From the UHGV virus genome UHGV-1600828: DNA of 16,701 nucleotides; one strand, 5' to 3'. This stretch comes from a virus. The translations under genes were made by a program, and so were the position numbers. Positions 49-16,701 of this stretch are shown here, piece after piece; position 1 is the first letter of the stretch, and every line of letters starts with the position of its first letter. The notes under the pieces were generated by a model that had not been told where the DNA came from, did no database searches, and was given only the letters and a program-made list of their open reading frames with translations.

Positions 49-98
49 ATCTACACGGTTGATCTTGAGTTCCACGGTGAAGAAGGGGATTACCAGTA

Positions 99-368
99 AT
101 GAAAGAGCTTGAGTTAAAGAAACCGATTACTGCTCATGGCGAGACACTCTCCGTACTTGAGTTTGATGAGCCCACCGGGAAAGATGTCCGCGAGCTGGGG
201 TATCCCTACCAGATGAATCAGGATGAGTCAGTCAGACTTCTGGCGCATGTGGTATCGAAATACATTGTGCGGCTGGCGAAAGTGCCGCAAAACTCTGTCG
301 ACCAGATGTCTCCGGCAGACCTGAATGCAGCGGCGTGGCTTGTGGCCGGTTTTTTCCTCCAGGCCTGA
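99..368 (+). CDS. Tail assembly chaperone (Mu gp41-like / P2 gpE-like), 89 aa
   Basis: ATG at 99 with AAGGGG upstream. Small acidic protein directly upstream of the tape measure gene. Carries a slippery heptamer near its 3' end. Family assigned from position and architecture. Confidence 0.7.
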   Translation: MKELELKKPITAHGETLSVLEFDEPTGKDVRELGYPYQMNQDESVRLLAHVVSKYIVRLAKVPQNSVDQMSPADLNAAAWLVAGFFLQA

Positions 369-517
369 CGGCTGAATACCTCACTGATCGCTTCTTTGAC
401 TGCGCCAGTTACTGGCGCATTAATCCTTTCGAATTGCTGAATATGCCGATCAGTGAAATTCCCTTGCTGGTCAGTCAGGCAAACAGGATAGAGCAGGAGA
501 AACGCACACATGGCTGA
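335..517 (+). CDS. -1 frame extension of the tail assembly chaperone (predicted fusion product 99..517 via slip at 350-356)
   Basis: Open -1 frame from the slippery site to TGA at 515-517. Its own ATG at 335 has no convincing RBS, so independent translation is unlikely. Arrangement mirrors lambda G/GT and P2 E/E'. Confidence 0.55.
   Translation: MACGRFFPPGLTAEYLTDRFFDCASYWRINPFELLNMPISEIPLLVSQANRIEQEKRTHG
350..356 (+). other. Candidate -1 programmed ribosomal frameshift site T_TTT_TTC
   Basis: Zero-frame codons GGT TTT TTC (348-356) contain a canonical X_XXY_YYZ heptamer. The -1 frame is exactly the frame of ORF 335..517, which ends at 517 overlapping the tape measure start at 510. Confidence 0.6.
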
Positions 518-2342
518 ATTTGAGCTTAAGGCGTTGATCACCGGTGTCGACAGACTTTCTCCCGCGCTGTCGAAAATGCAAAAGAAAATCCGGGGATTTA
601 AACGCCAGGCGGAAGAAGCATCACAGGGTGGGCTGGCGCTTGGTGGCGGACTGGCAGCGGGTCTGACGCTTTCCCTGAAATCTTATGCCGATCAGGAAAA
701 CGCCGCCACCGGGCTGAAAGTCGCCATGATGGATGCGAACGGCGAGGTCGGAAAGAGCTTTCAGGACATCAATAAACTGGCTATTGGCCTGGGTAACCAG
801 CTACCCGGTACAACGGCTGATTTCCAGAACATGATGCAGATGCTGGTGCGTCAGGGGATCCCGGCAGAAAATATTCTTGGCGGTGTGGGTAAAGCGACAG
901 CTTATCTTGCGGTACAACTGAAAAAAACACCGGAAGCGGCTGCTGAGTTTGCTGCAAAGATGCAGGATGCTACCGGAACGGCGTCAGAAGACATGATGGG
1001 GCTGTTCGACACTATCCAGAAGGCGTTTTATCTGGGCGTTGACGATACCAACATGTTGTCCTTCTTCACTAAAACCAGTTCTGTTCTGAAGATGGTGAAC
1101 AAGGACGGTCTTCAGGCTGCACAGAGCCTTGCCCCCATCAGCGTCATGATGGATCAGATGGGGATGAACGGGGAGTCGGCAGGTAATGCCCTGCGAAAAG
1201 TTATCCAGTCCGGATTAAGCGTTAAGAAAATCAGGGACGTTAATAAAGTTATGGCCCGCCAGAAACTCGGGGTACAGCTCGATTTTACTGACGGCAAAGG
1301 GAGTTTTGGCGGTCTTGATAACATGTTCAGGCAACTGGCAAAGCTGCGAAAACTGACCGACGTTAAGCGAACCGGTGTACTTAAGGCAATATTTGGTGAT
1401 GATGCCGAAACCCTTCAGGTGGTCAATGCTCTGATCGATAAAGGAAAGGATGGTTACGATCAGATCCAGCAGAAGATGAATAAACAGGCCAGCCTGAATA
1501 AACGTGTTCAGGCCCAGCTTGGTACGCTGTCCAACCTGTGGGAGGCAATGACGGGGACCGCAACTAACGGCCTTGCGGCTATTGGCGGCGCATTTTCTGG
1601 TGACGTCAAAAATATCACGCAATGGCTGGGGGAGTTAGGGGAAAAATTCACGAAGTTTGCGGATGAAAATCCCCGGGTTATTCGCGGCGTCGTCGGGCTT
1701 GCTGCCGGTCTTGCGATTCTGAAACTGGGATTGATGGGCGTGGGCAGTGCCATCAGTATCGTCAGCAGGATCATGTCGATGACGCCGATTGGCATGATTG
1801 CGACGGCGATTGCCCTGGCTGCGGGATTAATTATCACTAACTGGGATGTTGTCGGACCTTATTTTAAGAAGCTCTGGGAAACCATTAGTCCTTATTTTGA
1901 GGCTGGCTGGGAACTTCTGAAGAAGGTTTTTGCCTGGTCGCCGCTGGGGATGGTGATCAATAACTGGGGACCGGTTGTTAAGTGGTTTCAGGATATGTGG
2001 GATAAGCTGAAGCCGATTATTGAATGGTTTACCGACAGTTCCGGTGACACGGTCGATGCCATTAACTCGGCGCAGTGGGGCGCGGGTGCTTATGATGCTT
2101 ATGGGACGGGAATACCGCCACGGGGATACACTCCTTATCCGGAGGTGGATCCGGCTCAGGCAAACAACGCCTCCGGTGCCACAGGTCCGAATCCCTTCAT
2201 GATTAATAAAGCTACCGCGCCAAAAGTTGATGGTGAGATCAAGGTATCATTTATAAATATGCCACCAGGTATGCGGGTTACGGAAACACGCTCCAGTGGC
2301 ATTGATATAAATCACGATGTTGGCTATACCCGATTTTGGTAG
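510..2342 (+). CDS. Phage tail tape measure protein, 610 aa
   Basis: ATG at 510 with AGGAGA upstream. Long Gly/Ala-rich protein with a hydrophobic segment (…GVVGLAAGLAILKLGLMGVGSAISIV…). Sits between the chaperone/frameshift gene and the baseplate genes. Confidence 0.85.
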   Translation: MAEFELKALITGVDRLSPALSKMQKKIRGFKRQAEEASQGGLALGGGLAAGLTLSLKSYADQENAATGLKVAMMDANGEVGKSFQDINKLAIGLGNQLPGTTADFQNMMQMLVRQGIPAENILGGVGKATAYLAVQLKKTPEAAAEFAAKMQDATGTASEDMMGLFDTIQKAFYLGVDDTNMLSFFTKTSSVLKMVNKDGLQAAQSLAPISVMMDQMGMNGESAGNALRKVIQSGLSVKKIRDVNKVMARQKLGVQLDFTDGKGSFGGLDNMFRQLAKLRKLTDVKRTGVLKAIFGDDAETLQVVNALIDKGKDGYDQIQQKMNKQASLNKRVQAQLGTLSNLWEAMTGTATNGLAAIGGAFSGDVKNITQWLGELGEKFTKFADENPRVIRGVVGLAAGLAILKLGLMGVGSAISIVSRIMSMTPIGMIATAIALAAGLIITNWDVVGPYFKKLWETISPYFEAGWELLKKVFAWSPLGMVINNWGPVVKWFQDMWDKLKPIIEWFTDSSGDTVDAINSAQWGAGAYDAYGTGIPPRGYTPYPEVDPAQANNASGATGPNPFMINKATAPKVDGEIKVSFINMPPGMRVTETRSSGIDINHDVGYTRFW

Positions 2343-2370
2343 CCAGGATTCCCCTCACAGGTATTGCTGG

Positions 2371-2398
2371 TTGTAAGTCATAAATAGAGTGATAGAAT
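2371..2398 (+). promoter_or_regulatory. Candidate sigma70-type promoter for the moron (TTGTAA -16 nt- TAGAAT)
   Basis: -35-like TTGTAA at 2371-2376 and -10-like TAGAAT at 2393-2398 with a 16-nt spacer, in the AT-rich gap after the tape measure stop. Pattern match only. Confidence 0.3.
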
Positions 2399-2433
2399 TA
2401 ATGCACATTTAGAAAAATGTTAATAGGCGAAAA

Positions 2434-2964
2434 ATGAAAGGCTATATCACAGCAAGTGTAATTCTTGGAGCAGCGGCTATTTTTTCATCTCTCATAATCT
2501 CTGGCAACATCTCCTTTAAAGATGAACATATTATTCAGTTATCTGGAGGAGCCATAAAACTTGGTGATGTTTATAAAGAAAATAAATTGATAAGTGCAAA
2601 GATTATTTTTCCAGATAATCAGGGTGAACAGATTCTTGTTGTCGACGGCAATCCTGAAAACTTTAAGGAGGATTTTCAGGAGAAATTAAATAAAGTAATA
2701 AAAACTTTAAATGCGTCAAAGAAAAAAGATGAAGAGAAAGTTAGCCTGGATAATTTAAGTGTTATTGAAGAGTCTAAACTAGAGCTCGTTTCTGCGGTGC
2801 GTTACTCTGCTCAGTATGTTCCTATGTTTACTCTGACGCTGGACAAAAAAGAAATTACCATGCCTAAAAATACGGTAATATTTCCATTTGCCAGCGATGA
2901 AACAGCTAAGTATTTAAATGAACAACAGCAAAAGTATAAAGATTCGTTGTTTCTGACTCGCTAA
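2434..2964 (+). CDS. Moron-encoded membrane-anchored or secreted protein of unknown function, 176 aa
   Basis: AT-rich ORF inserted between GC-rich tail genes. N-terminal hydrophobic stretch (MKGYITASVILGAAAIFSSLIISG) followed by a Lys/Glu-rich body. Has its own promoter-like and terminator-like signals. No recognisable catalytic motif. Confidence 0.6.
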   Translation: MKGYITASVILGAAAIFSSLIISGNISFKDEHIIQLSGGAIKLGDVYKENKLISAKIIFPDNQGEQILVVDGNPENFKEDFQEKLNKVIKTLNASKKKDEEKVSLDNLSVIEESKLELVSAVRYSAQYVPMFTLTLDKKEITMPKNTVIFPFASDETAKYLNEQQQKYKDSLFLTR

Positions 2965-2983
2965 TTAATAAAATTCATTACAA

Positions 2984-3010
2984 GGCCACCTTCTAATAGG
3001 TGGCTTTTTA
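2984..3010 (+). terminator. Rho-independent terminator-like hairpin after the moron
   Basis: Stem GCCACC (2985-2990) / GGTGGC (2999-3004), 8-nt loop, then TTTTT (3005-3009). Confidence 0.6.
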
Positions 3011-3025
3011 ATTTTCGGAGTATAT

Positions 3026-4354
3026 ATGACGTGGAAAGACAGGCTTCAGGACGCGTCATTTCGCGGCGTGCCGTTTAAGGTTGAAGAAGAAAGTGCGGGA
3101 ACCGGTCGCCGTGTGGAAACACATGAATACCCGAACCGCGACAAACCCTATACCGAAGACCTGGGGAAAATCACTTTTCGCCCGTCCATCACGGCTTATG
3201 TGGTGGGAGATGACTGCTTTGACCAGCGCGATCGCCTGATTGAAGCGCTGAATAAACCAGGTCCCGGCACGCTTGTCCACCCGACATATGGTGAGCTGAA
3301 AGTCTGTGTTGACGGGGAAGTTCGGGTCAGCACATCGAAAAGTGAAGGGCGTATTGTCCGCTTTGACCTGAAGTTTGTCGAAGCAGGAGAACTCTCTTAC
3401 CCCACATCAGGTGCGGCGACGGCGCAGACGCTGATGTCATCCTGTTCTGCACTGGATGACTGCATCAGTGACAGCTTCAGCGGTTTCAGTATCGATGGTG
3501 TGGCGGATTTCGTGCAGAACGACGTTATCGGTAATGCCAGCATAATGCTGGGGTATGTTTCTGATGCGATGAAAGTGGTGGATTCTGCCGTATCGGATGC
3601 CGCCAGGCTGTTGCAGGGGGATATCTCGGTACTTCTGCCGCCGCCATCGTCAGGCAAAAATTTCGTTGAGCAGGTGCAGAAAATGTGGCGTACCGGGAAA
3701 CGCCTTTATGGTAACGCCAGCGACCTGGTCACCATGATCAAAACGCTTTCTGGTGTCAGCCTCGGCAGCGATTTGCAACCGCGCGGCGTCTGGAAAACGG
3801 ACAGTAAAACCACCGCCACAGCGACGCAGCAGCGTAACATGGTTGCCAGCACCCTTCGTACGACTGCAATCAGCGAAGCGGCGTATGCCGTTACCCGATT
3901 GCCTGCGCCAACAACTTCTGCGGTGATGCAGAATGCCGCAGTGGGGCAGTCAACAACACCCGCGCAGAGCTCCGGCTGGCCTGCCGTCACGCATCCGGTG
4001 CTGAACAATGCACCGGCGGTGAAAAACACGGTTGACCTGCCAACGTGGGAAGAACTGACCGACATTCGCGACACACTGAATACGGCAATTGATAAGGAGT
4101 TGTCCCGTACAACCAGTGATGCGCTGTTTCTGGCTCTGCGCCGGGTGAAAGCAGATCTGAATGCGGATATCAACACGCGCCTTGAACAGTCTGCTCGGAT
4201 CATTCAGCGCACGCCGGATGAGGTTTTACCCGCGCTGGTGCTGGCGGCGACCTGGTTTGATAACGCGGCGCGTGACGCGGACATTATCCGGCGTAATGCC
4301 ATTACGCATCCCGGCTTTGTGCCGGTAATCCCTCTGAAGGTGCCAGTGCAATGA
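3026..4354 (+). CDS. DNA circularization protein (Mu N/gp43-like), 442 aa
   Basis: ATG at 3026 with GGAG upstream. N-terminus (MTWKDRLQDASFRGVPFKVEEE…HEYP…) matches recalled Mu N-family N-terminal domain. Position after the tape measure; ATGA overlap with the next gene. Confidence 0.8.
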   Translation: MTWKDRLQDASFRGVPFKVEEESAGTGRRVETHEYPNRDKPYTEDLGKITFRPSITAYVVGDDCFDQRDRLIEALNKPGPGTLVHPTYGELKVCVDGEVRVSTSKSEGRIVRFDLKFVEAGELSYPTSGAATAQTLMSSCSALDDCISDSFSGFSIDGVADFVQNDVIGNASIMLGYVSDAMKVVDSAVSDAARLLQGDISVLLPPPSSGKNFVEQVQKMWRTGKRLYGNASDLVTMIKTLSGVSLGSDLQPRGVWKTDSKTTATATQQRNMVASTLRTTAISEAAYAVTRLPAPTTSAVMQNAAVGQSTTPAQSSGWPAVTHPVLNNAPAVKNTVDLPTWEELTDIRDTLNTAIDKELSRTTSDALFLALRRVKADLNADINTRLEQSARIIQRTPDEVLPALVLAATWFDNAARDADIIRRNAITHPGFVPVIPLKVPVQ

Positions 4355-5430
4355 ACGACAATGTCACGCTACGGGTAAATGGCCGGGAGTGGAATGGCTG
4401 GACATCGGTGCGCATCGGTGCCGGTATTGAACGGCTGGCGCGGGATTTCAGCGTGGAGATCACCCGCCAGTGGCCGGGAGATGAGGGTATCACCACGCTT
4501 CAGCCGCGCATTAAAAATGGTTCAAAAGTGGAAGTGCTGATTGGTGATGAGCTGGTGATCACCGGCTGGGTGGAGGCGACCCCCGTTCGTTACGATGCCC
4601 GTTCGGTCAGCACCGGTATTGCCGGACGTAGTCTGACTGCTGACCTGATTGACTGTGCAGCCGAACCGACACAGTTTAACGGACGATCGCTGGTACAGAT
4701 TGCGCAGGCGCTTGCTGCGCCTTTCGGCATTGAGGTGGTGAACAGCGATGCGCCGTCGGGTGTTATTCCGGATGTCCAGCCTGATCACGGTGAAACGGTG
4801 ATCGAGGTGATCAACAAAATACTCGGTCAGCAGCAGGCGCTGGCTTATGACGACCCGCACGGCAGGCTGGTGATTGGTGGTATTGGCTCAACGCGGGCAC
4901 ATACCGCGCTGGTACTTGGGGAAAACATCCTTTCCTGTGATACGGAGAAGAGTATCCGGGAGCGGTTTTCAGTTTACCAGGTGGCGGGGCAGCGTGCCGG
5001 AAACGACGATGATTTCGGTGAGGCCACCACCACCGCGCTGCGGGCCCGCACAGAGGATGCATTTATTGCCCGTTACCGTCCGATGTATATCAGGCAGACA
5101 GGGCAGGCTACGGGGGCAGGCTGTATTGCGCGTGCTGACTTTGAAGCCCGACAACGGGCGGCGCGGACGGATGAAACCACCTATGTGGTGCAGGGCTGGC
5201 GACAGGGTAACGGTACGCTGTGGCAGCCCAACCAGCGGGTGATTGTCTTCGATCCGGTCTGTGGTTTCGACAATACCGAACTGCTTGTCTCGGAAGTCAC
5301 GTTTACTCAGGACCAGAATGGCACCCTGACGGAAATCCGTGTCGGCCCACCTGATGCTTATCTGCCTGAACCCGAAGCCCCCGGCGCGCGGAAAAAGAAA
5401 AAAACCAGAGTACAGGAGGACCCGTTCTGA
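4351..5430 (+). CDS. Baseplate hub protein (Mu P/gp44-like; P2 gpD-like), 359 aa
   Basis: Start overlaps the upstream stop (ATGA). Family assigned from position in the conserved Mu-type baseplate gene order. Confidence 0.8.
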   Translation: MNDNVTLRVNGREWNGWTSVRIGAGIERLARDFSVEITRQWPGDEGITTLQPRIKNGSKVEVLIGDELVITGWVEATPVRYDARSVSTGIAGRSLTADLIDCAAEPTQFNGRSLVQIAQALAAPFGIEVVNSDAPSGVIPDVQPDHGETVIEVINKILGQQQALAYDDPHGRLVIGGIGSTRAHTALVLGENILSCDTEKSIRERFSVYQVAGQRAGNDDDFGEATTTALRARTEDAFIARYRPMYIRQTGQATGAGCIARADFEARQRAARTDETTYVVQGWRQGNGTLWQPNQRVIVFDPVCGFDNTELLVSEVTFTQDQNGTLTEIRVGPPDAYLPEPEAPGARKKKKTRVQEDPF

Positions 5431-5978
5431 TGAAGGCGATTGAAACCATACAGCGACAACTCCTCGGCCTGATTGGGCGGGCGGTGGTGAAAAGCATCAG
5501 TGCCGCCACGAAATGTCAGACCGTGGATGTGTCCCTGATTGCCGGTGAACCCAAAGCCGGGGTTGAACATCTTGAACCCTACGGTTTTACCGCAAGGGCA
5601 AACAGCGGTGCGGAAGCGGTGGTGTTGTTTCCGGATGGTGACCGTTCTCATGCGGTGGTTGTTACGGTGTCGGACCGACGCTACCGCCTGAAAGGGCTGC
5701 AGACGGGTGAGGTGGCTGTCTATGACGATCAGGGGCAGTCCGTGACGCTGACCCGGGCGGGGATCGTGGTGGATGGTGCAGGTAAAACGATCACGTTTCG
5801 CAATGCGCCTAAGGCTCGTTTTGAAATGGACCTGGAAGTGACCGGACAGGTGAAAGACCTGTGCGACTCCAGCGGCACCACCATGTCAGCGATGCGGCTT
5901 GCCTATAACGGGCATCGTCACAGAGAGAACGGTCAGGGCAGTAACACCGACAAACCTGATAAAGCGATGGAGGCATGA
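5430..5978 (+). CDS. Baseplate spike/assembly protein V-like (Mu gp45-like), 182 aa
   Basis: TGATG overlap with the upstream gene. Size and position typical of gpV-like spike proteins. Confidence 0.8.
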   Translation: MKAIETIQRQLLGLIGRAVVKSISAATKCQTVDVSLIAGEPKAGVEHLEPYGFTARANSGAEAVVLFPDGDRSHAVVVTVSDRRYRLKGLQTGEVAVYDDQGQSVTLTRAGIVVDGAGKTITFRNAPKARFEMDLEVTGQVKDLCDSSGTTMSAMRLAYNGHRHRENGQGSNTDKPDKAMEA

Positions 5979-6403
5979 TGGAACTGTGGCTGACGGTGAA
6001 CGGTAAACGCACCTGTGCCAGCGCACCGATGGATCCGCTGACCCGTGCCGTGGTGATTTCCCTGTTCACCTGGCGGCGGGCTGAACCTGATGACAATGCC
6101 GACGTCCCGATGGGATGGTGGGGGGATACCTGGCCTGCGGTACAGAATGACCGTTACGGCTCCCGACTGTGGCTGCTTCAGCGCAGCAAACTGACCAATC
6201 AGCTGGTGCAGACGGTAAGGGGGTATATCCGCGAATGCCTGCAATGGATGATTGATGACGGCGTGGTGTCCCGTATTGATCTGGATATCCGCCGCACCGG
6301 GATTAATGAACTGGGTAACAGTATCACTCTCTGGCGTCGTGACGGACCGGTAATGATTTCTTTTGATGATCTGTGGAGTGCGATAACGCATGGCGGACAG
6401 TGA
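5975..6403 (+). CDS. Baseplate wedge protein (Mu gp46-like / gpW/gp25-like), 142 aa
   Basis: ATGA overlap with the upstream gene. Small protein between the spike gene and the J-like gene. Confidence 0.75.
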   Translation: MMELWLTVNGKRTCASAPMDPLTRAVVISLFTWRRAEPDDNADVPMGWWGDTWPAVQNDRYGSRLWLLQRSKLTNQLVQTVRGYIRECLQWMIDDGVVSRIDLDIRRTGINELGNSITLWRRDGPVMISFDDLWSAITHGGQ

Positions 6404-7448
6404 ATTTCAGCGCCCGACGCTGGCAGAAAATATCAGTATGCTCCGTAACGATTTATTCGCCAGGCTGGACGTCAGCGACACGCTCCGGCGCATGGATGAA
6501 GACGTGCGGGCAAAGGTGTATGCGGCGGCGCTGCATACGGTTTACGGTTACATCGATTATCTGGCAATGAACATGCTGCCTGACCTGTGCGATGAGTCCT
6601 GGCTGGCGCGACATGCTGCGATGAAACGGTGTCCGCGCAAGGGAGCCACGGCTGCCAGTGGGTATATGCGCTGGGAAGGTGTCAGCGATGGCCTGAAGGT
6701 GACCGCCGGGAGTGTTATTCAGCGCGATGACCTGGTGCAGTACACGACAACTGACGATGCAACCAGCTCCGGTGGTGTCCTGCGCGTGCCGATCGCCTGC
6801 TCAAGTGCAGGTGCGGTCGGTAACGCTGACGACGGTACGGCATTAATCCTGGTCACGCCGGTGAATGGTCTGCCGTCTTCCGGTGTGGCTGACACCCTGA
6901 CAGGCGGATTTGATACTGAAGAGCTGGAAACGTGGCGCGCCCGCGTCATTGAGCGGTATTACTGGACGCCGCAGGGCGGGGCTGACGGGGACTATGTTGT
7001 CTGGGCTAAAGAAGTGCCCGGCATTACCCGCGCATGGACATACCGTCACTGGATGGGAACGGGAACTGTCGGTGTGATGATTGCCAGCAGTGACCTGATT
7101 AATCCCATTCCGGAAGAATCAACGGAAACGGCGGCAAGACAACATATCGAGCCACTGGCCCCGGTGGCAGGCTCTGATTTGTATGTGTTTAGGCCGGTGG
7201 CACATACGGTGGATTTTCATATCCGCGTGACGCCGGACACACCGGAAATACGGGCTGCCATCACCGCGGAGTTGCGTTCGTTCCTGCTGCGTGATGGTTA
7301 TCCGCAGGGAGAACTGAAGGTATCGCGTATCAGTGAGGCGATTTCCGGTGCGAACGGGGAATACAGCCATCAGTTGCTTGCACCGACAGACAATATCTCC
7401 ATTGCAAAAAATGAACTGGCGGTTCTGGGGACGATTTCATGGACGTGA
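6390..7448 (+). CDS. Baseplate J-like protein (Mu gp47-like), 352 aa
   Basis: Overlaps both neighbours (translational coupling). Size and position typical of baseplate J-family proteins. Confidence 0.8.
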
Positions 7449-8023
7449 CAAACGATGATTACATCCGTCTGTTGTCGGCACTGTTGCCCCCCGGTCCGGC
7501 GTGGTCAGCCAGCGATCCGGCGATTGCCGGTGCGGCACCGTCATTAACCCGTGTTCATCAGCGTGCGGATGCCCTGATGCGGGAGCTGGATCCGCGCACC
7601 ACCACTGAACTGATAAACCGCTGGGAGCGTCTGTGCGGCCTGCCGGATGAATGTATTCCGGCAGGGACGCAGACCCTTCGCCAGCGTCAGCAACGGCTGG
7701 ATGCGAAGGTTAATCTGGCGGGCGGCATCAATGAGGATTTTTACCTTGCACAGCTTGCTGCCCTGGGCAGACCAGATGCCAACATCACGCGATACGACAA
7801 AAGCACGTTCACCTGCTCATCGGTCTGTACTGACGCGGTGAATGCGCCGGAATGGCGGTATTACTGGCAGGTCAACATGCCAGCCGCCACAAACACCACC
7901 TGGATGACATGTGGCGATCCCTGTGATTCCGCGCTGCGTATCTGGGGCGACACCGTTGTCGAATGTGTGCTTAACAAACTCTGCCCGTCGCATACCTACG
8001 TAATTTTTAAATATCCGGAGTAA
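7439..8023 (+). CDS. Tail protein I-like (Mu gp48 / YmfQ-like), 194 aa
   Basis: Overlaps the J-like gene by 10 nt and lies immediately upstream of the tail fibre gene. Confidence 0.75.
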
Positions 8024-8026
8024 TCC

Positions 8027-8848
8027 ATGCATCGTATAGACACGAAAACCGCGCAGAAGGATAAGTTCGGCGCGGGTAAGAACGGTTTTACCCGTGGTAA
8101 CCCCCAGACCGGCACACCTGCCACCGATCTGGATGATGACTACTTTGACATGTTGCAGGAGGAACTTTGCAGTGTTGTGGAGGCATCCGGTGCCAGCCTA
8201 GAGAAGGGGCGGCATGACCAGCTGCTTACAGCGCTTCGTGCGCTGCTGTTAAGCCGCAAGAATCCGTTTGGCGATATCAAATCGGATGGCACGGTGAAAA
8301 CGGCTCTCGAAAACCTTGGTTTGGGAGAAGGTGCTCCAGCTATTGGCGTTCCGTTCTTCTGGCCGTCCGCCGCAATGCCAAATACTGTAATCGACAGTTG
8401 GTCCAGTATGGTGTTTTTGAAGTTCAACGGCGCGAAATTCTCTGCCACTGATTACCCTGTGCTGGCGAAAGTGTTTCCGGCGCTAGCATTACCTGACGCA
8501 CGGGGTGATTTCATTCGTATCTGGGATGATGGGCGCGGGATTGATGTCGGACGTACCCTACTTTCAGGGCAATCACACACAATTATGGATCATGCACACA
8601 ATATGGAATTGTGGACGGGGGACGGGCTTGCCGCAGGAAGTGCACGGGAAGGAGTAAACCCAGGAATACTGGCTACATACGGTGACGGGGGAATAGTTAA
8701 AACGGACGAACCCGGTCTTAAGGTGCCTTCCTCACTACGAGCTCTTAGCTCTCGTAGTGTTAAACGTTATGGTGAAATTAGTGGAAATGTAGATACAGAA
8801 ACCCGTCCACGAAATATTGCATTTAACTTTCTGGTGAGGGCTAAATAA
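8027..8848 (+). CDS. Tail fibre protein, 273 aa; constant N-terminal part (to ~aa 97) plus the currently expressed variable C-terminal part inside the invertible segment
   Basis: ATG at 8027. An invertase crossover site lies inside the coding sequence at 8304-8329 (…ALENLGLGE…). A silent alternative C-terminus on the minus strand shares the same GLGE junction. 1-nt overlap with the downstream assembly gene. Confidence 0.8.
8304..8329 (+). other. Left invertase crossover site (hix/gix/pix-like, 26 bp) inside the tail fibre gene
   Basis: CTCTCGAAAACC-TT-GGTTTGGGAGAA. Half-sites resemble the Hin-family TTCTC..AAAACC pattern around a 2-bp core (8316-8317). Its inverted partner is at 10177-10202. 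Confidence 0.6.
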
Positions 8849-9441
8849 TGATACCTGTTTTTGATGAAAATGGGCTGGCTACAGTGCCGGGCGATATGCG
8901 TTGTTTTTATTATAATGCAGTAACGTATGAATATACCGGCTGGTCTGATGAATATATTAATACTGGCGTAAGTATACCCGCCTGTTCCACTGGTATTGAC
9001 CCGGGCGAAAACATCCCGGGAAAAGTGGCAGTATTTACGGGTAAGGGATGGAGCCATGAAGAAGACCATCGCAATGAGACCGTTTACTCAACTGAAAATG
9101 GCGCAGCTGTTACAGTGGATTATATCGGTGCCATCAAAGACGGTTATGTCACGCTTTCACCGTTAACGCCATACGATAAATGGGATGGTGAGAAATGGGT
9201 GACGGATACCGAGGCACAGCATAGCGCCGCAGTAGAAGCGGCAGAAGCACAGCGCCAGTCGCTGATTGATGCTGCAATGGCTTCCATCAGTCTGATTCAA
9301 CTGAAATTACAGGCTGGGCGGAAGCTGACGCAGCCAGAAAACACCCGACTTAACGCTGTGCTGGATTACATTGACGCGGTGACGGCAACAGATACCAGCA
9401 CAGCGCCGGACGTCATCTGGCCTGAACTGCCGGAGGCGTAG
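8848..9441 (+). CDS. Tail fibre assembly protein (currently expressed copy), 197 aa
   Basis: 1-nt overlap with the fibre gene stop. Position and size typical of Tfa/Mu U-like chaperones. Confidence 0.75.
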   Translation: MIPVFDENGLATVPGDMRCFYYNAVTYEYTGWSDEYINTGVSIPACSTGIDPGENIPGKVAVFTGKGWSHEEDHRNETVYSTENGAAVTVDYIGAIKDGYVTLSPLTPYDKWDGEKWVTDTEAQHSAAVEAAEAQRQSLIDAAMASISLIQLKLQAGRKLTQPENTRLNAVLDYIDAVTATDTSTAPDVIWPELPEA

Positions 9442-9856
9442 ACCATTCAATATCTGGCGCACCGGAAGTATCGACCAGTTCCAGTGCGTCCAGATAATCC
9501 AGCCACAAATTATATTGCGCCAGTTCCTCACCTTTCAGACGACCAATTGATGCTTTACCTGGCCATTGTTTACTGTTTATGTATTCGTTGGCCTGGTTAA
9601 TCAATTGCTGCTTTTTAGTTTCGGCTGATGCAATTTGTTCTTCACGTGTTGGTGGAGGAATATCTGCCCATGCAGGCAGTCCATCCTCTCCGACACATCT
9701 GTATTTTCCTTCTGGTGGTGTATCATAGAAATATTCCCTGAAAATTACTTCGTCTATATCAACACCTTTTTCTTCAGGCCATTCACCTTTTTCAACATAA
9801 AGAGACTGAAGTTCGTAAGGATATGCCAGGTTGTTTACGTACAGATATTTCATCAT
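9413..9856 (-). CDS. Alternative tail fibre assembly protein (silent in this orientation), 147 aa
   Basis: Minus-strand ORF convergent with and overlapping the + strand assembly gene by 29 nt. Lies immediately downstream (minus sense) of the alternative fibre C-terminus. Confidence 0.7.
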   Translation of the reverse strand: MMKYLYVNNLAYPYELQSLYVEKGEWPEEKGVDIDEVIFREYFYDTPPEGKYRCVGEDGLPAWADIPPPTREEQIASAETKKQQLINQANEYINSKQWPGKASIGRLKGEELAQYNLWLDYLDALELVDTSGAPDIEWSTPPAVQAR

Positions 9857-10189
9857 TACCAGCCCTTAGCGAAAAACGCACCACCTTCAAGACCATAATT
9901 GCAGTGAGCTATGAAGCCGGTAGTGCTCCAGTTGGTCGCCCCCCACATATTCCCGCCCCCGAAACCACCATCGCACACAATTACAATGCCCGGTGTCTGT
10001 GTAAATGGAATCGGGAATGAAACATTGGCGGATACAGGCCCGTGTTCACCAGGAAAACTAATTCGTCCCCACTGTTCAATTGAACCATCTGGCATTTTTC
10101 GCCAGCCTGAACCTGATGCATATGATGACATATCAGGTATCTGATTTTCCCCTGTTCCCACATTCCGTTTTGCCGCTTCTCCCAAACCA
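9856..10189 (-). CDS. Alternative tail fibre variable C-terminal segment (promoterless and startless; expressed only after inversion)
   Basis: Minus-strand frame reads …[19 protein letters not shown]… through the right crossover site. The GLGE junction matches the + strand fibre at the left site. The ORF-track start at 10230 lies outside the segment and is probably not used. Confidence 0.65.
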
Positions 10190-10202
10190 ACGTTTATGAA
10201 AA
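10177..10202 (-). other. Right invertase crossover site (inverted partner of 8304-8329)
   Basis: Plus strand TTCTCCCAAACC-AA-CGTTTATGAAAA. Its reverse complement shares GGTTTGGGAGAA with the left site. About 55 bp upstream of the invertase start. Confidence 0.6.
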
Positions 10203-10256
10203 TGCAGAAATAACGAGCAAATGGCATCATTCCTGCTTTTGTCAGGGAGATCCACC

Positions 10257-10811
10257 ATGCTTATTGGCTATGTACGCGTATCAACAAATGACCAGAACAC
10301 CGATCTACAACGTAATGCGTTGAACTGTGTAGGATGTGAACTGATTTTTGAAGACAAGATAAGCGGTACGAAGTCCGAAAGGCCCGGACTGAAAAAACTG
10401 CTCAGGACATTATCGGCAGGTGACACTCTGGTTGTCTGGAAGCTGGACAGGTTAGGGCGCAGTATGCGGCATCTTGTTACGCTGATAGAAGAGTTGCGCC
10501 AGCGTGGCGTGAATTTCCGAAGCCTGACTGACAGTATTGATACCAGTACCCCAATGGGCCGTTTCTTTTTTCATGTCATGGGTGCCCTGGCTGAAATGGA
10601 ACGAGAACTGATTGTTGAACGAACAAAAGCTGGACTGGAAGCTGCTCGCGCACAGGGACGAATTGGTGGACGTCGTCCCAAACTTACACCAGAACAATGG
10701 GCGCAGGCCGGGCGATTAATTGCATCAGGCGTTCCTCGCCAGAAGGTGGCGATCATCTATGATGTTGGTATATCGACACTGTATAAGAAGTTTCCGGTCG
10801 GAGATAAATGA
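10257..10811 (+). CDS. Site-specific DNA invertase, serine recombinase of the Hin/Gin/Pin/Cin family, 184 aa
   Basis: ATG at 10257 preceded by GGGAGA. N-terminus [18 protein letters not shown] with catalytic Ser in VRVSTNDQ, and a C-terminal helix-turn-helix region (…GRRPKLT…STLYKK…) match recalled Gin/Hin sequences. ORF-track start at 10221 adds 12 unlikely residues. Confidence 0.9.
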
Positions 10812-10850
10812 AACCGTAGCACGTCGTATGCAAGAAGATCGTGCTGCGGT
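10793..10850 (+). repeat. Imperfect direct repeat copy 1 (invertase 3' end plus downstream hairpin)
   Basis: …CCGGTCGG…GAAACCGTAGCACGTCGTATGCAAGAAGATCGTGCTGCGG. Contains a dyad CCGTAGCACG / CGTGCTGCGG. Similar to 11820-11870 at roughly 80% by eye, with indels. Confidence 0.55.
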
Positions 10851-10871
10851 TTATGCTTATCACTTAAAGAC

Positions 10872-11741
<870 letters not shown>

Positions 11742-11819
11742 CTAACCCTTTGAATTTACATAGCGCAAAAAGATACCTTTCCTCATAATGTGAGCTAATT
11801 TTATGTTTCGTTTGATGAT

Positions 11820-11870
11820 CGGGTCGGTCTCGAAACCCGTAGCCACGTCATATGCAAGAACGTGCTACGA
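11820..11870 (+). repeat. Imperfect direct repeat copy 2 (partner of 10793-10850), upstream of the GIY-YIG gene
   Basis: …CGGGTCGG…GAAACCCGTAGCCACGTCATATGCAAGAACGTGCTACGA, with the same dyad and central TATGCAAGAA as copy 1. Confidence 0.55.
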
Positions 11871-12083
11871 CTGGCTGGTGAACTTCCGATAGTGCGAGTA
11901 TTGAATGATTTCCAACTGTTATCGATTTTGCGTATTTTTTGCATGAGAGGATTTTTACCTCCTCCCACCGATCCTCCATGGCTTTACGCCAGTGTCTCTG
12001 GTCTGCTATGTGCCAAAAGTAGACATTGCTGACATAAAATATATGATTTGACCAACTACAACCGAAGAATAGTCCAATACATC

Positions 12084-12112
12084 TTGGGTCTACATCCAAC
12101 TAGTTATAGAAT
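12084..12112 (+). promoter_or_regulatory. Candidate promoter for the 12150 gene (TTGGGT -17 nt- TAGAAT)
   Basis: -35-like TTGGGT at 12084-12089 and -10-like TAGAAT at 12107-12112. Pattern match only. Confidence 0.25.
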
Positions 12113-12149
12113 CCCGAGTATACATGTTAGTTTTGGACATTCTAATCAC

Positions 12150-12569
12150 ATGAAATATTGCTACCTGATAATTTTAAGCTTGACTATTTCTTCTGCTCAG
12201 GCTGAGACATTTCCCGCCAAGCTAACCTGTAATACGGGTGAACAAATTACTCTTAAAGTTACTGGTCCAGAGCAGCGACTGATCTACACTTCTTCACTCT
12301 ATGGAACATTCCATGGATATCTCGATGTATTTAAAGGGTTATCACCTGAGCGTCAATATGAGGTACTTGCCAATATTCATGGAATAGCTCGATATAGGGA
12401 CAGCCCGTTACATTTTACTCTCCTAATGAAACGAACCAATGGTGAGATGGATAATGGCTCAATTATCTATCGATATACCTACCTGAAAGACGAGCAACTG
12501 ATTGATGAAGAAGGACATTGCAGTCCGATAAAAGATGGCGGATTTATTGAGGGGAGCAAAAGTTACTAA
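12150..12569 (+). CDS. Small secreted/periplasmic protein of unknown function, 139 aa with predicted signal peptide
   Basis: ORF-track start at 12048 is a TTG. First ATG at 12150 gives MKYCYLIILSLTISSAQA|ETFP…, a typical Sec signal peptide with an AQA cleavage motif. Two Cys in the mature part. No strong SD. Confidence 0.5.
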   Translation: MKYCYLIILSLTISSAQAETFPAKLTCNTGEQITLKVTGPEQRLIYTSSLYGTFHGYLDVFKGLSPERQYEVLANIHGIARYRDSPLHFTLLMKRTNGEMDNGSIIYRYTYLKDEQLIDEEGHCSPIKDGGFIEGSKSY

Positions 12570-12884
12570 GGCCAAGCGTATAGTTATCGGTATGCTTACC
12601 GTTTGCAGACCCCACGGCGCTCAGGCAGCCCGCTCCGTGCCAATAGCAGGCATTACTATGGTCTGTTCCGTAACAGTCATTTTTACCAAAGTATATGGTT
12701 AGAACTATGCCGAAAATGCCCTCATACCATAATTAGAACTAACAATTAATTTTTTAAATTAAAATAGTTTAAAGAGTCATTTTTAATCACTTATTTATCG
12801 TGCTTATAGCTCGAAAGATACACCTTATCATCATCCCCTGTTACAATGTAGGGAGTAGGTCAATAAGATTAGAAGGAGATTTAA

Positions 12885-14351
12885 GTGAAAAAAATCAGTG
12901 ACGAACAAATTAATATCGAGGCTCAATCAGGATATAGACCATGGACTATAGATTCTGGTATCGGATTGCTTCCCTTTTCAGAATTAGGTGATCGAGAATT
13001 TGAGTTGCTATGTTATTTGTTAGTAAAGAACGAAATTGAAGATGGAAAGCATAAAAATATATCCTCAATATCTTTAATGCAAGGAGTTTCTGAAAGAGGA
13101 CGCGACTGCGTGCTATACCATAACGGTGTTGTAAGTGGTTTAATACAATGTAAAAAAATGCAAGGTAGAATAACTAGACCGCAAGCATTAAGAGAAATAA
13201 TTAAATTTTTATTGTTTTCCATTATTGATAATAGTTTGCTTCCCGCTCCTGATTGTTTCGAATATAAGTTGTATGTATCAAATGACATCGCTGAAACTAC
13301 AAACTCACTAATTCATTCTTACTCAACCGAAGTTGAGGTGGAAATAAAGTCTGATACTATCAGTAAGTATATAAAAGATGTTGTATCTGAATACGAGTCA
13401 TTCAAAATTTTTGAAAACAGCCTACCAATTAGTAAAGTTATTGATCTTTTGAGACGGATAAATGTAACCGCATCAAATGCAACAGATTTAACCTTGCGAG
13501 TTCATAAGTATGATTCATTGTTATCATTGTTTTTTAATGTAAAAACTGTAATCGACTTAGAATCTGCAGATAAAGTTATACGTAACGCGCTTGATGACTA
13601 TGGTTTAAAATACTTGACCGATGAAGACTTAAAACAACTTCAAATTCGCATTTCAAATACTAAAGAAGAAAATCGAATAAATTTAGGTTTTGTGGATTTC
13701 TTTGGTTATAACAAAGAGTTTTTTAAATCCTTGAAAGGCGAGCCATTTAAACAAGTGATAGAAGCGGTTGCGTCGGTAACATTATCATTAGATAAGTATT
13801 TAATGGAATTCATAAATAGTAAAATCAATGAGCTAGTTTTTGAAAACGTCACAATAAAATTATTAAATCCAGGGAGGATTCACCCTTTCAGTGTGGGCGT
13901 GGTGGCACCTTACCTATTTCAGAGACTGTCCATTAAAGTCGTCTCAAGAAAGTTGCCAACAGAGTTAGTCACCAAATTTTATGAACAAGCATCTCTGTCC
14001 AAAAAGGAATTAATCGACTCGATAGCAATACAGCTCTTTGAAACAAGCGAAAGAGTTATGAAAGGAGATTTCAGTCAGTTAGTGGGAAATCCAGAAGACA
14101 TACAGTTTAAAAAGAGAATATTCACTCATATACATAATGGATTCAACAGTATAGAAGATGCAAAAACTACTTTTTCTCGAGACATCCAGATTATAATGCC
14201 AACATTAGATTTTATAGAAGAAAAAATAGGTGAGCTATTACAAGAAGAGCGTACTGTGGTAATAAAAGACGCCTCTTTTTTGGATAATGATGATGAGATT
14301 AAGAAAATAGCAAAAACGCTGAGTATGATCGAACCCAATCCAGGCGCATAG
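12885..14351 (+). CDS. 488-aa protein: N-terminal Mrr/restriction-endonuclease-like (PD-(D/E)xK-type) motif plus large uncharacterised C-terminal domain; candidate defence protein
   Basis: GTG start at 12885 with AAGGAGA RBS 6 nt upstream. N-terminal …REFELLCYLL…GVSERGRDCVL…GLIQCKKM… resembles the recalled Mrr-catalytic pattern (E … D … QxK). Remaining ~380 aa are Lys/Glu/Ile-rich with no motif recognised. Confidence 0.7.
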   Translation: MKKISDEQINIEAQSGYRPWTIDSGIGLLPFSELGDREFELLCYLLVKNEIEDGKHKNISSISLMQGVSERGRDCVLYHNGVVSGLIQCKKMQGRITRPQALREIIKFLLFSIIDNSLLPAPDCFEYKLYVSNDIAETTNSLIHSYSTEVEVEIKSDTISKYIKDVVSEYESFKIFENSLPISKVIDLLRRINVTASNATDLTLRVHKYDSLLSLFFNVKTVIDLESADKVIRNALDDYGLKYLTDEDLKQLQIRISNTKEENRINLGFVDFFGYNKEFFKSLKGEPFKQVIEAVASVTLSLDKYLMEFINSKINELVFENVTIKLLNPGRIHPFSVGVVAPYLFQRLSIKVVSRKLPTELVTKFYEQASLSKKELIDSIAIQLFETSERVMKGDFSQLVGNPEDIQFKKRIFTHIHNGFNSIEDAKTTFSRDIQIIMPTLDFIEEKIGELLQEERTVVIKDASFLDNDDEIKKIAKTLSMIEPNPGA

Positions 14352-14387
14352 AATAACTGTAGTTTTGGTATTTTTATTTTTAGTAGC

Positions 14388-14413
14388 TGTGTTAGTGTAA
14401 TTGCACTAACACA
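14388..14413. repeat. Perfect 10-bp-stem inverted repeat (CTGTGTTAGTG-taattg-CACTAACACA)
   Basis: Stem 14388-14397 pairs with 14404-14413 around a 6-nt loop. Not followed by a U-run on either strand, so not a canonical intrinsic terminator. Confidence 0.5.
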
Positions 14414-14417
14414 CTCC

Positions 14418-14470
14418 TTGAGCTGCTCCCCGTTGCTTAGGACACTTCAATGTTAGTCATGAAGTAGTGA
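14418..14470 (+). repeat. ~50-bp imperfect direct repeat, copy A (partner at 16647-16701)
   Basis: TTGAGCTGCTCCCCGTTGCTTAGGACACTTCAATGTTAGTCATG… aligns with TTGACCTGCTCCCCGTTGATTAGTACACCCCGATGTTAGTAATG… at the window end, roughly 80% identical by eye. Confidence 0.6.
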
Positions 14471-14745
14471 ACTTCCGCTCATCGCTCATAACAGACATAA
14501 ACTTCAGTTATGGCATAAAGGTATGCATGCTGGGTGGGGAAAGTATGAAGGAAAAGAAGACTGCTGCGCCGTTTGTCGTCACGTTTATCTTCATTGGCTA
14601 TGCAAGTCGTAATACAAGGTGGGACAAAACTGAGACACATAAGGCCTCGCAATGGCTTGCAAGGCTTTACATGTTTTGATGTGGTGGGACGTGTGAGCGC
14701 AGTGTTGATGGGGTAATGCTTTGAATTAGAAGTGGATTCTTATAA

Positions 14746-14790
14746 TTCGTAATGCGAAGGTCGTAGGTTCGACTCCTATTATCGGCACCA
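14746..14790 (+). other. 3' fragment (~45 nt) of tRNA-Thr(CGU) (thrW-like); likely prophage att junction (attR-type remnant)
   Basis: TTCGTAATGCGAAGGTCGTAGGTTCGACTCCTATTATCGGCACCA: anticodon-loop remnant reading CGT, T-arm GTAGG-TTCGACT-CCTAT, 3' acceptor strand TATCGGC, discriminator A and CCA. Upstream sequence cannot form the 5' acceptor, D-arm or anticodon stem, so it is not an intact tRNA. Matches the recalled E. coli thrW 3' end. Confidence 0.7.
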
Positions 14791-15254
14791 TCTTTTCTCG
14801 TAAAATCATCAAGTTACTATTGCAGTATTTTGCTTTGTTCAACACTAATGTGCAATTTTGCGCGTTGTAGGTGTGGCAAAATTGTGGCAAAGCTAATTGG
14901 TCAGCATTTGCATCATTACGCTAAACAAACTACTTCCTTATAAACGTAATGTGTTGACCTTATCGATGCGTTGCATGAAAGACAGTTTAGTGATGAAAAA
15001 TCTTATAAATTAACAGCTTAAATACATTATCCGATAGAGCTAAGTGCCAGAAAGGGACACTCAGGTTACATAACAATGAGTGATACAGTTCACGTAGTGA
15101 AGGTACTATGCCTAGGTGTTTGATTACACTTTGATCATTGATGATACGCTCATGAAGGTATTACTTTCCTGTAATGAGCAGGTAGGTAACGATGTCGAAC
15201 TAAATGAATTTATAGTAAACTTTGCAACAAGAGAACAAGGGAGTATGAGGGGTT

Positions 15255-16241
15255 ATGGCTACTGCAGAGCAGATCAAAGCTTTATTGAAAAGCCACGTTG
15301 ATCGTGATGATCAGCGTTTCTTTTCTATTGCTTTGCAGGTGGCAGCTAAGGAAGCAAGGCAAGGTCATCATAAGCTTGCTAATGATATAAAAAACTTAGT
15401 TGATAAAAATCAGAAAACAACGAGTTCTGTAGGTTTAGTTGAAAAACGACTTACACCATTTGTTAAGCAGCCTGATGGTGATCTTAAGGGGTTACTTGAG
15501 CAAACGAACAAGCCAGTACATCTTCAAGATCTGGTGATTTCTGGAAGCGTTAGGGAAAGATTGAATCAGGTTCTGCTTGAACAAAAACAGAAAGATAAAC
15601 TTTCTGAGTTTGGGCTTATTCCAAGAAGAAAAATTCTTTTCACTGGTCCTCCCGGTACTGGTAAGACAATGTCCGCATCAGTCATTGCTACAGAGTTAAA
15701 GCTACCACTTTATACAGTCGTCTTAGATAATCTAATCACTCGCTATATGGGTGAAACTGCAGCTAAGCTGCGTTTAATTTTTGACCACATACGGCAAACA
15801 AGAGCTGTATATTTTTTTGACGAGTTCGATGCTATAGGAACTCAGCGTGGCGCTCAGAATGACGTTGGAGAAATTCGTAGGGTCTTAAATTCTTTTTTAA
15901 TGTTTGTAGAGCAGGATGATTCTGAGAGCATAGTTTTAGCTGCAACCAATCATCCAGAGCTTTTAGATCGCGCCTTATATAGACGATTTGACGATATTAT
16001 ACCGTTCACAAGGCCTGAGGATAATCTAATCAGGAATCTTATTGAACAGAGACTCGCTGTCTTTGACCTCGGTAATTTATTTTGGAGTGAGATCATTGAT
16101 AGTGCTTCAGGTCTAAGTGCAGCGGAGATCACGCGAGCAAGTGAAGATGCTGCCAAAGAATCAGTGCTTTATAATGCAAACAATATTACAACCGATTTGT
16201 TAGTAAAGGCTATAAAGCGTAGGCAAGAAAGTAGACAATAA
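15255..16241 (+). CDS. Classic-clade AAA+ ATPase, 328 aa
   Basis: Walker A GPPGTGKT, Walker B VYFFDEFD, sensor-1/second region of homology LAATNHPELLDRALYRRFD with an Arg-finger-like RR. ~120-aa N-terminal non-ATPase region. GAGGGG RBS-like upstream. Confidence 0.8.
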   Translation: MATAEQIKALLKSHVDRDDQRFFSIALQVAAKEARQGHHKLANDIKNLVDKNQKTTSSVGLVEKRLTPFVKQPDGDLKGLLEQTNKPVHLQDLVISGSVRERLNQVLLEQKQKDKLSEFGLIPRRKILFTGPPGTGKTMSASVIATELKLPLYTVVLDNLITRYMGETAAKLRLIFDHIRQTRAVYFFDEFDAIGTQRGAQNDVGEIRRVLNSFLMFVEQDDSESIVLAATNHPELLDRALYRRFDDIIPFTRPEDNLIRNLIEQRLAVFDLGNLFWSEIIDSASGLSAAEITRASEDAAKESVLYNANNITTDLLVKAIKRRQESRQ

Positions 16242-16249
16242 GGGATGAA

Positions 16250-16669
16250 ATGACTACCAACAAGAGGCATATTTTATTAAACGGCTATGTTTCCCCCGAA
16301 AACTATCGCTCTAGGAGCAATGGTCGTAGTCCCCAAGTCCCAGCTCGTGATCGAGCGGTACATGGTATATCATTACTAAATCAGTATAGCCGTATATTGA
16401 ATCATTATGATGAAAGACCGAGGCTTCCCCCTGTTACTGATGAAAAAGGGATTTATGTTAGGCTAATCAGTTTTGAACAATGCGATCTTCCTATAGATAA
16501 AATCGATAATACTTATTTCAAGCTTTGTTCTTTAGTTAAATCAAATAATCGTGAAACTGCGATTATATACATTAATGAAAATGACAGAACTAAATTCACT
16601 AAAAAAATAAATGACTATTTGAATCCATCGAAGGATGGTATCGAGTTTGACCTGCTCCCCGTTGATTAG
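16250..16669 (+). CDS. Hypothetical protein, 139 aa, co-operonic with the AAA+ ATPase
   Basis: ATG 8 nt after the ATPase stop with AAGGGA RBS, suggesting co-transcription and coupling. No recognisable motif. Its 3' end lies inside repeat copy B. Confidence 0.6.
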   Translation: MTTNKRHILLNGYVSPENYRSRSNGRSPQVPARDRAVHGISLLNQYSRILNHYDERPRLPPVTDEKGIYVRLISFEQCDLPIDKIDNTYFKLCSLVKSNNRETAIIYINENDRTKFTKKINDYLNPSKDGIEFDLLPVD

Positions 16670-16701
16670 TACACCCCGATGTTAGTAATGTCTTCATAAG
16701 C
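16647..16701 (+). repeat. ~50-bp imperfect direct repeat, copy B (partner at 14418-14470), truncated by the window edge
   Basis: Overlaps the last codons and stop of the 139-aa gene (…FDLLPVD*). Aligns with copy A. Confidence 0.6.

Follow-up and report, generated by a model that had tools for sequence, protein, structure and literature searches.

Layout of the locus at the end of the prophage

The window, a stretch of 16,701 nucleotides from the virus genome UHGV-1600828, ends in a short region that lies outside the phage gene modules and contains two co-oriented open reading frames (ORFs) downstream of a tRNA gene fragment. The first ORF encodes an AAA+ ATPase, and the second, of 139 codons, runs into an insertion sequence (IS) that extends to the end of the window. 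The features of this region are as follows.

14745–14790, plus strand: thrW 3' fragment, the terminal 46 nt of a tRNA-Thr gene; attR core and left boundary of the ietAS island.
14791–15254, plus strand: non-coding leader, presumed promoter region of ietA; 100% identical to the thrW–ietA interval of Escherichia coli ECONIH4.
15255–16241, plus strand: ietA, 328 aa, ATG start, intact; classic-clade AAA+ ATPase, the antitoxin/ATPase component of IetAS.
16242–16249, plus strand: 8-nt spacer between ietA and the 139-aa ORF, carrying the Shine-Dalgarno (SD)-like sequence of ietS.
16250–16647, plus strand: ietS', a fragment of 398 nt (132 2/3 codons) from the 5' end of the 829-codon gene of an S8 peptidase, without its catalytic domain.
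16250–16669, plus strand: the 139-aa ORF, ATG start; 133 ietS codons followed by 6 IS codons.
16648–16701, plus strand: left end of an ISSen4-like IS (IRL and the bases that follow); the window ends inside this element.

The original prediction had described two co-oriented ORFs 8 nt apart, each with its own ribosome-binding site, in an AT-rich region, and this description holds. The start of ietA is preceded by two SD-like purine runs in the sequence (GAGGGG and AAGGGAG), and the SD-like AAGGGA before the 139-aa ORF overlaps the ietA stop codon. The GC content of the region is 0.38–0.41, compared with 0.52–0.61 in the phage tail genes of the window. The two reading frames, ietA and the ietS stump, are probably co-transcribed, and ietA itself is presumably expressed. 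Since a simple promoter scan of the window gave no convincing sigma-70 candidate upstream of ietA, the ietA promoter is placed only presumptively within 14791–15254. Some terminator-like matches fall inside genes and are probably noise arising from the AT-rich sequence. No Rfam RNA family was found in the neighbourhood of the locus, and ARAGORN detected no complete tRNA in the window.

The integration-site remnant that was proposed next to the two ORFs is real. Positions 14745–14790 are exactly the last 46 nt of tRNA-Thr thrW of ECONIH4 (6001–6046 of the tRNA at 5971–6046 in the extracted locus), and ietA starts 464 nt downstream of this fragment. The right arm of a prophage makes up the remainder of the window; its tail module is 97% identical to those of the Shigella serotype-converting phages SfV, SfII and SfI. 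Phages of this type integrate at thrW via a 46-bp core. The prophage end consists of a Pin/Gin-type invertase with an invertible fibre segment, three AT-rich moron genes, a solitary 43-mer resembling an IS end, and the 46-nt thrW fragment, which represents the attR of an SfV/SfII-like prophage. Because the prophage ends at attR and ietAS lies outside it, ietAS is part of a neighbouring island and not phage cargo.

The locus was compared by megablast with 5,426 complete E. coli genomes. Downstream of an intact thrW, ECONIH4 encodes the same ATPase (WP_001460375.1) and, after it, an 829-aa S8 family peptidase (WP_020244573.1). The island in other strains likewise comes directly after an intact thrW, and it carries a HigA-family antitoxin gene and P-type conjugation remnants (traJ, trbJ and trbL'); thrW adjoins ietAS in every examined locus that still retains thrW. 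ECONIH4 carries the same prophage end on the far side of the island, at a distance of about 80 kb, and there too the 46-nt core follows it; this arrangement shows the tandem accretion of elements at thrW.

The ATPase and its truncated partner

The ietA product matches the PADLOC IetA profile (PDLC02196) with an E-value of 5.5e-77 and 257.7 bits over residues 2–325 of 328, and Pfam AAA with an E-value of 1.8e-29. It is 100% identical to the RefSeq protein WP_001460375.1, and shares 50% identity over 324 aa with the Ti-plasmid IetA, both proteins being 328 aa long; the Ti plasmid compared here is pTiEML4, which is probably equal to pTiC58, judging by its length (214,233 bp) and its protein accessions. 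About 120 residues at the N-terminus had been thought to match no family. As the IetA profile spans residues 2–325, this region belongs to a known family after all, and its motifs are conserved among 81 homologues. A search of PDB sequences identified no relative of the N-terminal domain.

The Walker A, Walker B and second-region-of-homology motifs, which had been predicted to be intact, were all located. They comprise GPPGTGKT (residues 131–138), VYFFDE (185–190) and the arginines of YRRF (243–246), respectively, and a sensor-1 TN is present at 231–232. All four are conserved in the alignment of 81 IetA sequences. A pore-loop-1-like YMG is located at 164–166, of which only MG is conserved in the same alignment and the tyrosine is not. 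From its sequence, IetA is composed of a family-specific N-terminal domain of about 100 aa and a CDC48/FtsH/PAN-like ATPase module. With its motifs present, the ATPase looks catalytically intact.

The second ORF had been taken for a 139-aa protein of no recognizable family. Indeed, the ORF alone has no significant match in Pfam, PADLOC or NCBIfam, including any to IetS or Peptidase_S8. Since these profile searches were empty, its identity emerged only from the comparison with intact loci. Residues 1–133 are identical (133/133) to the N-terminus of the 829-aa S8 peptidase WP_020244573.1, after which the two sequences diverge; the final six codons (DLLPVD) and the stop codon are IS sequence (22 nt, 16648–16669). 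Read in this way, the 139-aa ORF is a chimera of the ietS 5' end and the IS, and not a genuine gene product.

The intact partner WP_020244573.1 is a typical member of the effector family, matching PADLOC IetS with an E-value of 2.9e-34 and Pfam Peptidase_S8 at residues 269–615 with an E-value of 4.3e-54. The catalytic triad of D276, H316 and S549 is conserved among 49 full-length IetS homologues, and all three residues lie past the break, which falls at residue 133. Intact IetS of E. coli (829 aa) and the Ti-plasmid S8 peptidase (836 aa) are 35% identical end to end, residues 7–133 included. An IetAS locus is expected to have a complete, co-directional S8 gene downstream of the ATPase gene, with the Asp/His/Ser triad in the effector; the window has only codons 1–133 of 829 and none of the triad. 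No solved structure matches the IetS sequence in a search of PDB sequences, and the AlphaFold models predicted from single sequences for the 133-aa stump (pLDDT 44) and a neighbouring 488-aa ORF (pLDDT 33) were too poor for a fold search.

A homologue search with the 133-aa stump returned six short fragments only, a result that reflects an apparent word-index bias toward short proteins. Two of these six were inspected. One, in Salmonella, is a contig-end partial at proA–thrW, and the other, in Yersinia hibernica, is an IS-flanked fragment. On the evidence of these two, the short database "proteins" that match the IetS N-terminus are artefacts like the 139-aa ORF.

The break itself is sharply defined. 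The DNA is 100% identical to the intact ECONIH4 locus from 14745 to 16647, where the identity ends, and from 16648 the window reads TGACCTGCTCCCCGTTGATTAGTACACC... The following 54 nt (16648–16701) are identical (54/54) to positions 1–54 of a 1,221-bp IS in E. coli LR-33 (7817–9037 of the extracted locus), annotated in RefSeq as an IS3-like element of the ISSen4 family. The LR-33 element has terminal inverted repeats, reading TGACCTGC... at the left and ...GGGGGCAGGTCA at the right, two ORFs of 97 aa and 297 aa, and a 4-bp target duplication (CTGT). The window holds 54 nt of its own IS copy; this copy's right end and target duplication fall beyond position 16701, and so would any surviving 3' part of ietS, which an outward promoter carried by the IS might express. 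The ISSen4-type insertion in the ietS of LR-33 lies after the position equivalent to 16435 of the window, and the two insertions are independent since their positions in ietS differ. The exact ietS/IS junction of the window had no match in species-representative genomes, and was absent from all of the 5,426 complete E. coli genomes searched.

A composite transposon around ietA, which a direct repeat (14419–14461 and 16648–16690) might suggest, was rejected. At 84% identity, the left copy matches the IS end only imperfectly; it is not followed by IS sequence, and it forms part of the prophage end in other genomes, where this end lies apart from ietAS. ECONIH4 has the prophage-end interval 10800–14750 at 100% identity, some 80 kb from its own ietAS.

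Conservation of the pair and its decay in E. coli

A scan of one genome per species yielded more than 532 loci with IetA relatives, of which the best 80 (49–76% identical) were kept. These 80 loci are distributed among Gamma-, Beta- and Alphaproteobacteria, cyanobacteria, Bacteroidota, Acidobacteriota, Planctomycetota, Myxococcota and Frankia. Immediately after the IetA gene and in the same orientation, 74 of the best 80 loci encode an IetS homologue; the figure becomes 74 of 77 informative loci if we exclude three where the flank is shorter than 520 nt. The remaining three have a UvrD-like helicase, a DUF6932 protein, or a ParE-like protein and an unknown protein as neighbours. The spacing between the two genes is mostly 6–65 nt in the 74 related loci. 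The original prediction had asked whether the pair stays together across genomes. It does so as IetA with a full-length IetS, but not as IetA with a protein of about 139 aa, as the short homologues examined are all contig-end partials or IS truncations. IetA relatives also occur in 496 plasmid records, one of which is an Agrobacterium tumefaciens Ti plasmid of 214,233 bp.

Within E. coli, the locus is found in 34 of 5,426 complete genomes (0.6%) and is always chromosomal. It is uninterrupted in about 22 of them, which carry an identical ietA followed by an intact ietS. The lesions that affect ietS alone are listed by strain below.

14EC047 and 14EC017: IS1A.
730V1: IS903B.
TUM2820: ISKpn26.
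LR-33: ISSen4 and IS3.
2013C-4991 and HCP5S3_I4: 1-nt deletions.
ET881: an apparent 3' truncation.

In B27 and in DAM, ANT and VTB97584v, IS1-associated deletions removed ietS together with part of ietA. None of the 34 genomes with an ietAS locus combines an intact ietS with a broken ietA. The lesions confined to ietS represent at least eight independent events (the seven tabulated and the window insertion), with the reservation that the 1-nt deletions may be assembly errors. If lesions were distributed by gene length, we calculate that eight of eight single-gene lesions would fall in ietS with a chance of (2490/3477)^8, or about 0.07. The lesion pattern fits a decay in which the toxin is lost first, although it is suggestive only. 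Repeated breakage of ietS with survival of ietA would also fit a cost of carrying a toxic protease.

Function, alternatives and relation to known systems

The observations above make it very likely that the locus is a degraded copy of the known IetAS/SgiAT system, in which ietA is intact and ietS has been cut by an ISSen4-like IS, and that it occupies the left edge, beside thrW, of a small E. coli island acquired horizontally. The original prediction could not assign the pair to a named system from the sequence alone, a limit overcome by the profile searches, which give IetAS (SgiAT); its expectation that cargo of the defence or toxin type would lie beside the integration site proved right.

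In the pairs of pTiC58 and SGI1, the S8 protease acts as toxin and the AAA-ATPase as antitoxin, and the toxin gene never occurs unaccompanied by that of the antitoxin (PMC5006074). Phage protection by IetAS works through abortive infection, for which YosG of SPbeta can be the trigger (10.1101/2022.08.27.505566). Defence by IetAS needs the protease activity, the construction of ietA mutants proved impossible, and how the system acts against phages "remains unknown" (PMC13069673). By analogy with these homologues, which are 35–50% identical, IetS of the intact thrW-locus system would be a toxic effector neutralised by IetA, and a phage protein would unleash the toxicity, leading to abortive infection. 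The CDC48/FtsH/PAN-like module and its pore-loop motif suggest that IetA is a ring-shaped, substrate-threading remodelling ATPase, which probably keeps IetS inactive until a phage cue appears.

In the window, the IS would separate the catalytic domain of IetS from its promoter, start codon and N-terminal region. The locus could at best make IetA and a non-catalytic stump, which would leave an orphan antitoxin gene. With the catalytic domain detached from promoter and start codon, the locus is expected to be neither toxic nor defensive, and since defence requires protease activity (PMC13069673) and the protease domain is missing, this copy cannot defend. The window locus is thus almost certainly inactive, both as a toxin and as a defence system.

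Three other explanations of the locus were weighed. If the two ORFs formed a genuine operon, in which the AAA+ ATPase is joined by a bona fide 139-aa partner of unknown family, the locus could represent an undescribed defence or toxin system. Both ORFs are present with an 8-nt spacing and SD-like sequences, and the second lacks significant profile matches, as such a system would require. This interpretation is nevertheless highly improbable, and already refuted by the sequence comparisons, given the composition of the ORF, with residues 1–133 taken from the N-terminus of an 829-aa S8 peptidase and its last six codons and stop from an IS end, given the nature of the other short homologues (the Salmonella contig-end partial and the IS-flanked Yersinia fragment), and given that the partner of IetA across phyla is a protease of about 830 aa. 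Still less credible, to the point of being negligible, is the idea that the ATPase is not IetA and belongs to housekeeping or to another system, as an unfoldase of the FtsH/PAN/CDC48 type or a CBASS-type TRIP13. Residues 105–314 do resemble the D2 domain of CDC48/p97 (E-value about 1e-43 against PDB), PAN and FtsH are also similar (about 1e-27), and PADLOC TRIP13 is matched with an E-value of 7.7e-14. However, these matches cover the ATPase module only and are all far below curated cutoffs, and the TRIP13 score of 49.8 bits compares with 257.7 bits for IetA over the full length. In addition, the locus encodes no protease, HORMA or CD-NTase partner, and the gene occurs in just 0.6% of E. coli genomes, on an AT-rich island. 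The FtsH/PAN/CDC48 and TRIP13 identities were ruled out on score and coverage.

The third alternative accepts the ATPase as IetA and concerns its fate. An orphan IetA, with or without the IetS stump, might be retained by selection, either for anti-addiction against IetAS-bearing plasmids and islands or for a role independent of IetS. The complete conservation of ietA and its untouched upstream region are compatible with retention, as is the record of at least eight independent ietS-only lesions with ietA never disrupted while ietS is intact. GenBank contains 412 SgiA-like antitoxins against 187 SgiT toxins (PMC5006074), and, with 496 plasmid records, pairs of the IetAS type are common on conjugative plasmids. 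On the other hand, the lesion bias is not statistically significant when gene length is considered (about 0.07), recent IS insertions spare the neighbouring gene by default, and some of the 1-nt deletions are possibly assembly errors. The plasmid-encoded IetA and IetS are only about 46% identical, which makes cross-neutralisation of a plasmid IetS doubtful. Selective retention of the orphan is thus unlikely, and we prefer to regard the window locus as an IetAS copy broken by an IS.

The locus illustrates how a gene truncated by an IS can be mistaken for one encoding a new small partner protein. A defence caller run automatically would correctly report no IetAS here, since the effector is absent; a lone ietA is not to be counted as a working defence system. 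The molecular mechanism of IetAS is unsolved in the literature (PMC13069673); for that question a broken copy offers a poor entry point, and intact alleles such as that of ECONIH4 are better suited. The significance of this copy goes little beyond correct annotation, with a modest interest at the population level.

Among the known systems, the founding member is IetAS of pTiC58, consisting of the serine protease IetS and the AAA-ATPase IetA. Gene order and orientation are the same in the E. coli locus; the window copy differs in that its ietS is cut at codon 133 and in that the locus occupies a chromosomal thrW site instead of a Ti plasmid. SgiAT (S026/S025) of Salmonella Genomic Island 1 resembles the thrW locus in being an island-borne enterobacterial pair with the ATPase gene followed by the protease gene. 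Its proteins are 50% and 36% identical to pTiC58 IetA and IetS, respectively (PMC5006074), identities that are the same as for the E. coli thrW pair. SgiAT is found at trmE with a 20-bp gap between its genes, whereas the window locus is found at thrW with an 8-bp gap and is disrupted; the two are set apart by these features. A derivation of the pair as a copy of SGI1 sgiAT was ruled out by the different spacing and insertion site.

The anti-phage IetAS was reportedly described by Gao et al. in 2020, and homologues from Bacillus cereus m1293 and E. coli ECOR52 are said to have been tested later. The PADLOC IetA and IetS profiles of this system match both the window ATPase and the intact E. coli partner. 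The corresponding NCBIfam models give lower scores: the ietA product reaches 221.6 bits against IteA_antiphage (NF042959), below the whole-protein cutoff of 510 bits, and the intact E. coli IetS 38.8 bits against IteS_antiphage (NF042956), below the cutoff of 900 bits. As its scores are below these cutoffs, the thrW variant represents a different branch from the anti-phage exemplar. The Ti-plasmid founder pair fails the same two models as well (198.8 bits and no match, respectively), so the models describe a narrow sub-branch and not the family. A further relative, ietHAS (Liu-DS4), consists of IetAS and an SNF2 helicase (PMC13069673). The IetA and IetS modules are common to both, whereas no helicase gene lies beside the window ietA, upstream of which there are only the thrW fragment and the prophage end.

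At a greater distance, IetA shares with the D2 domain of CDC48/p97, FtsH and PAN an ATPase module with Walker A and B, YMG, sensor-1 and second-region arginines. It differs from these unfoldases in its single ATPase domain, its unique N-terminal domain of about 100 aa, and the lack of a fused protease or transmembrane part. The pair at the thrW locus is of an already known kind, degraded in the window.

Lesions in ietS and neighbours of IetA homologues

The ietAS pair, an AAA+ ATPase gene (ietA) followed by an S8 protease gene (ietS), also lies at thrW in other E. coli strains (loci L002, L003 and L085–L090), where independent ietS lesions are found in at least seven lineages. These comprise insertions of IS1A, IS903B, ISKpn26 and ISSen4 together with IS3, two deletions of a single nucleotide, and one gene truncated at its 3' end. 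Disruption of ietA on its own was never seen among these loci. Separately, an IS1-mediated rearrangement joins the ietAS island to corA in several IS1-rich strains.

Three IetA homologues (∼50% identical), drawn from the best 80 in a scan of one genome per species, have no S8 protease as the next gene downstream. The downstream genes, in coordinates of each locus, are:

L072, 6313–8382: UvrD-like helicase
L078, 6005–6583: DUF6932 protein
L080, 6037–7693: ParE-like small protein and an unknown 433-aa ORF

These three loci may represent effector swapping in the IetA family.

The prophage end ahead of attR

Two moron-type genes and a 488-aa ORF separate the DNA invertase gene of the SfV-like prophage from attR:

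10872–11696, − strand: LEM-3-like GIY-YIG nuclease-domain protein (Pfam PF22945, E = 2.4e-14; PHROG 5356)
12048–12569, + strand: 173-aa ORF, no family match
12885–14351, + strand: 488-aa ORF at the prophage's moron end, shortly ahead of attR; G+C content ∼33%

The first two genes occupy the slot where SfV/SfII-type phages bear O-antigen modification genes. The 488-aa ORF has no match in Pfam, NCBIfam, PHROGs or the PDB, and its identical locus in the complete E. coli genome ECONIH4 is annotated as a hypothetical protein (WP_000723924.1). Its sole signal is a weak LmuA-like PADLOC match (E = 0.0036, residues 36–181), and an N-terminal RGRDCVLY...GLIQCKK motif is PD-(D/E)xK-like in appearance. 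The single-sequence AlphaFold model (pLDDT 33) was not usable. We regard this ORF as a candidate gene for defence, or for a nuclease, carried by the prophage.

Between this ORF and attR, a 43-nt stretch (14419–14461) shares 84% identity with the terminal repeat at the left end of the ISSen4-like element that cuts ietS at 16648, and lies in the same orientation as that IS end. No more IS sequence was found after the 43-mer, and the prophage-end interval that includes it (10800–14750) recurs with 100% identity in other E. coli genomes. The 43-mer may be the scar of an IS, or it may act as an attractor for IS3-family elements.

Tail-fibre switch and accretion of elements at thrW

The region 8027–10811 is an invertible tail-fibre switch, in which two oppositely oriented gene sets face each other and the fibre segment is flanked by 20-nt inverted repeats (8311–8330 and 10176–10195; 95% complementary):

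8027–9441, + strand: fibre and assembly genes
9413–10230, − strand: alternative assembly gene and fibre C-terminus
10221–10811, after the fibre segment: Pin/Gin-type DNA invertase (PHROG 125, E = 2.5e-97)

In ECONIH4, the same prophage end is located ∼80 kb from thrW, past the ietAS island, and again terminates in the 46-nt thrW core; this indicates that mobile elements accreted in tandem at thrW. The tail module of the prophage (1–10800), which encodes the tape measure, a Mu N-like DNA circulation protein, baseplate and fibres, is ∼97% identical to those of Shigella phages SfV, SfII and SfI, and likewise to those of E. coli phages SKA5 and vB_EcoM-689R6.
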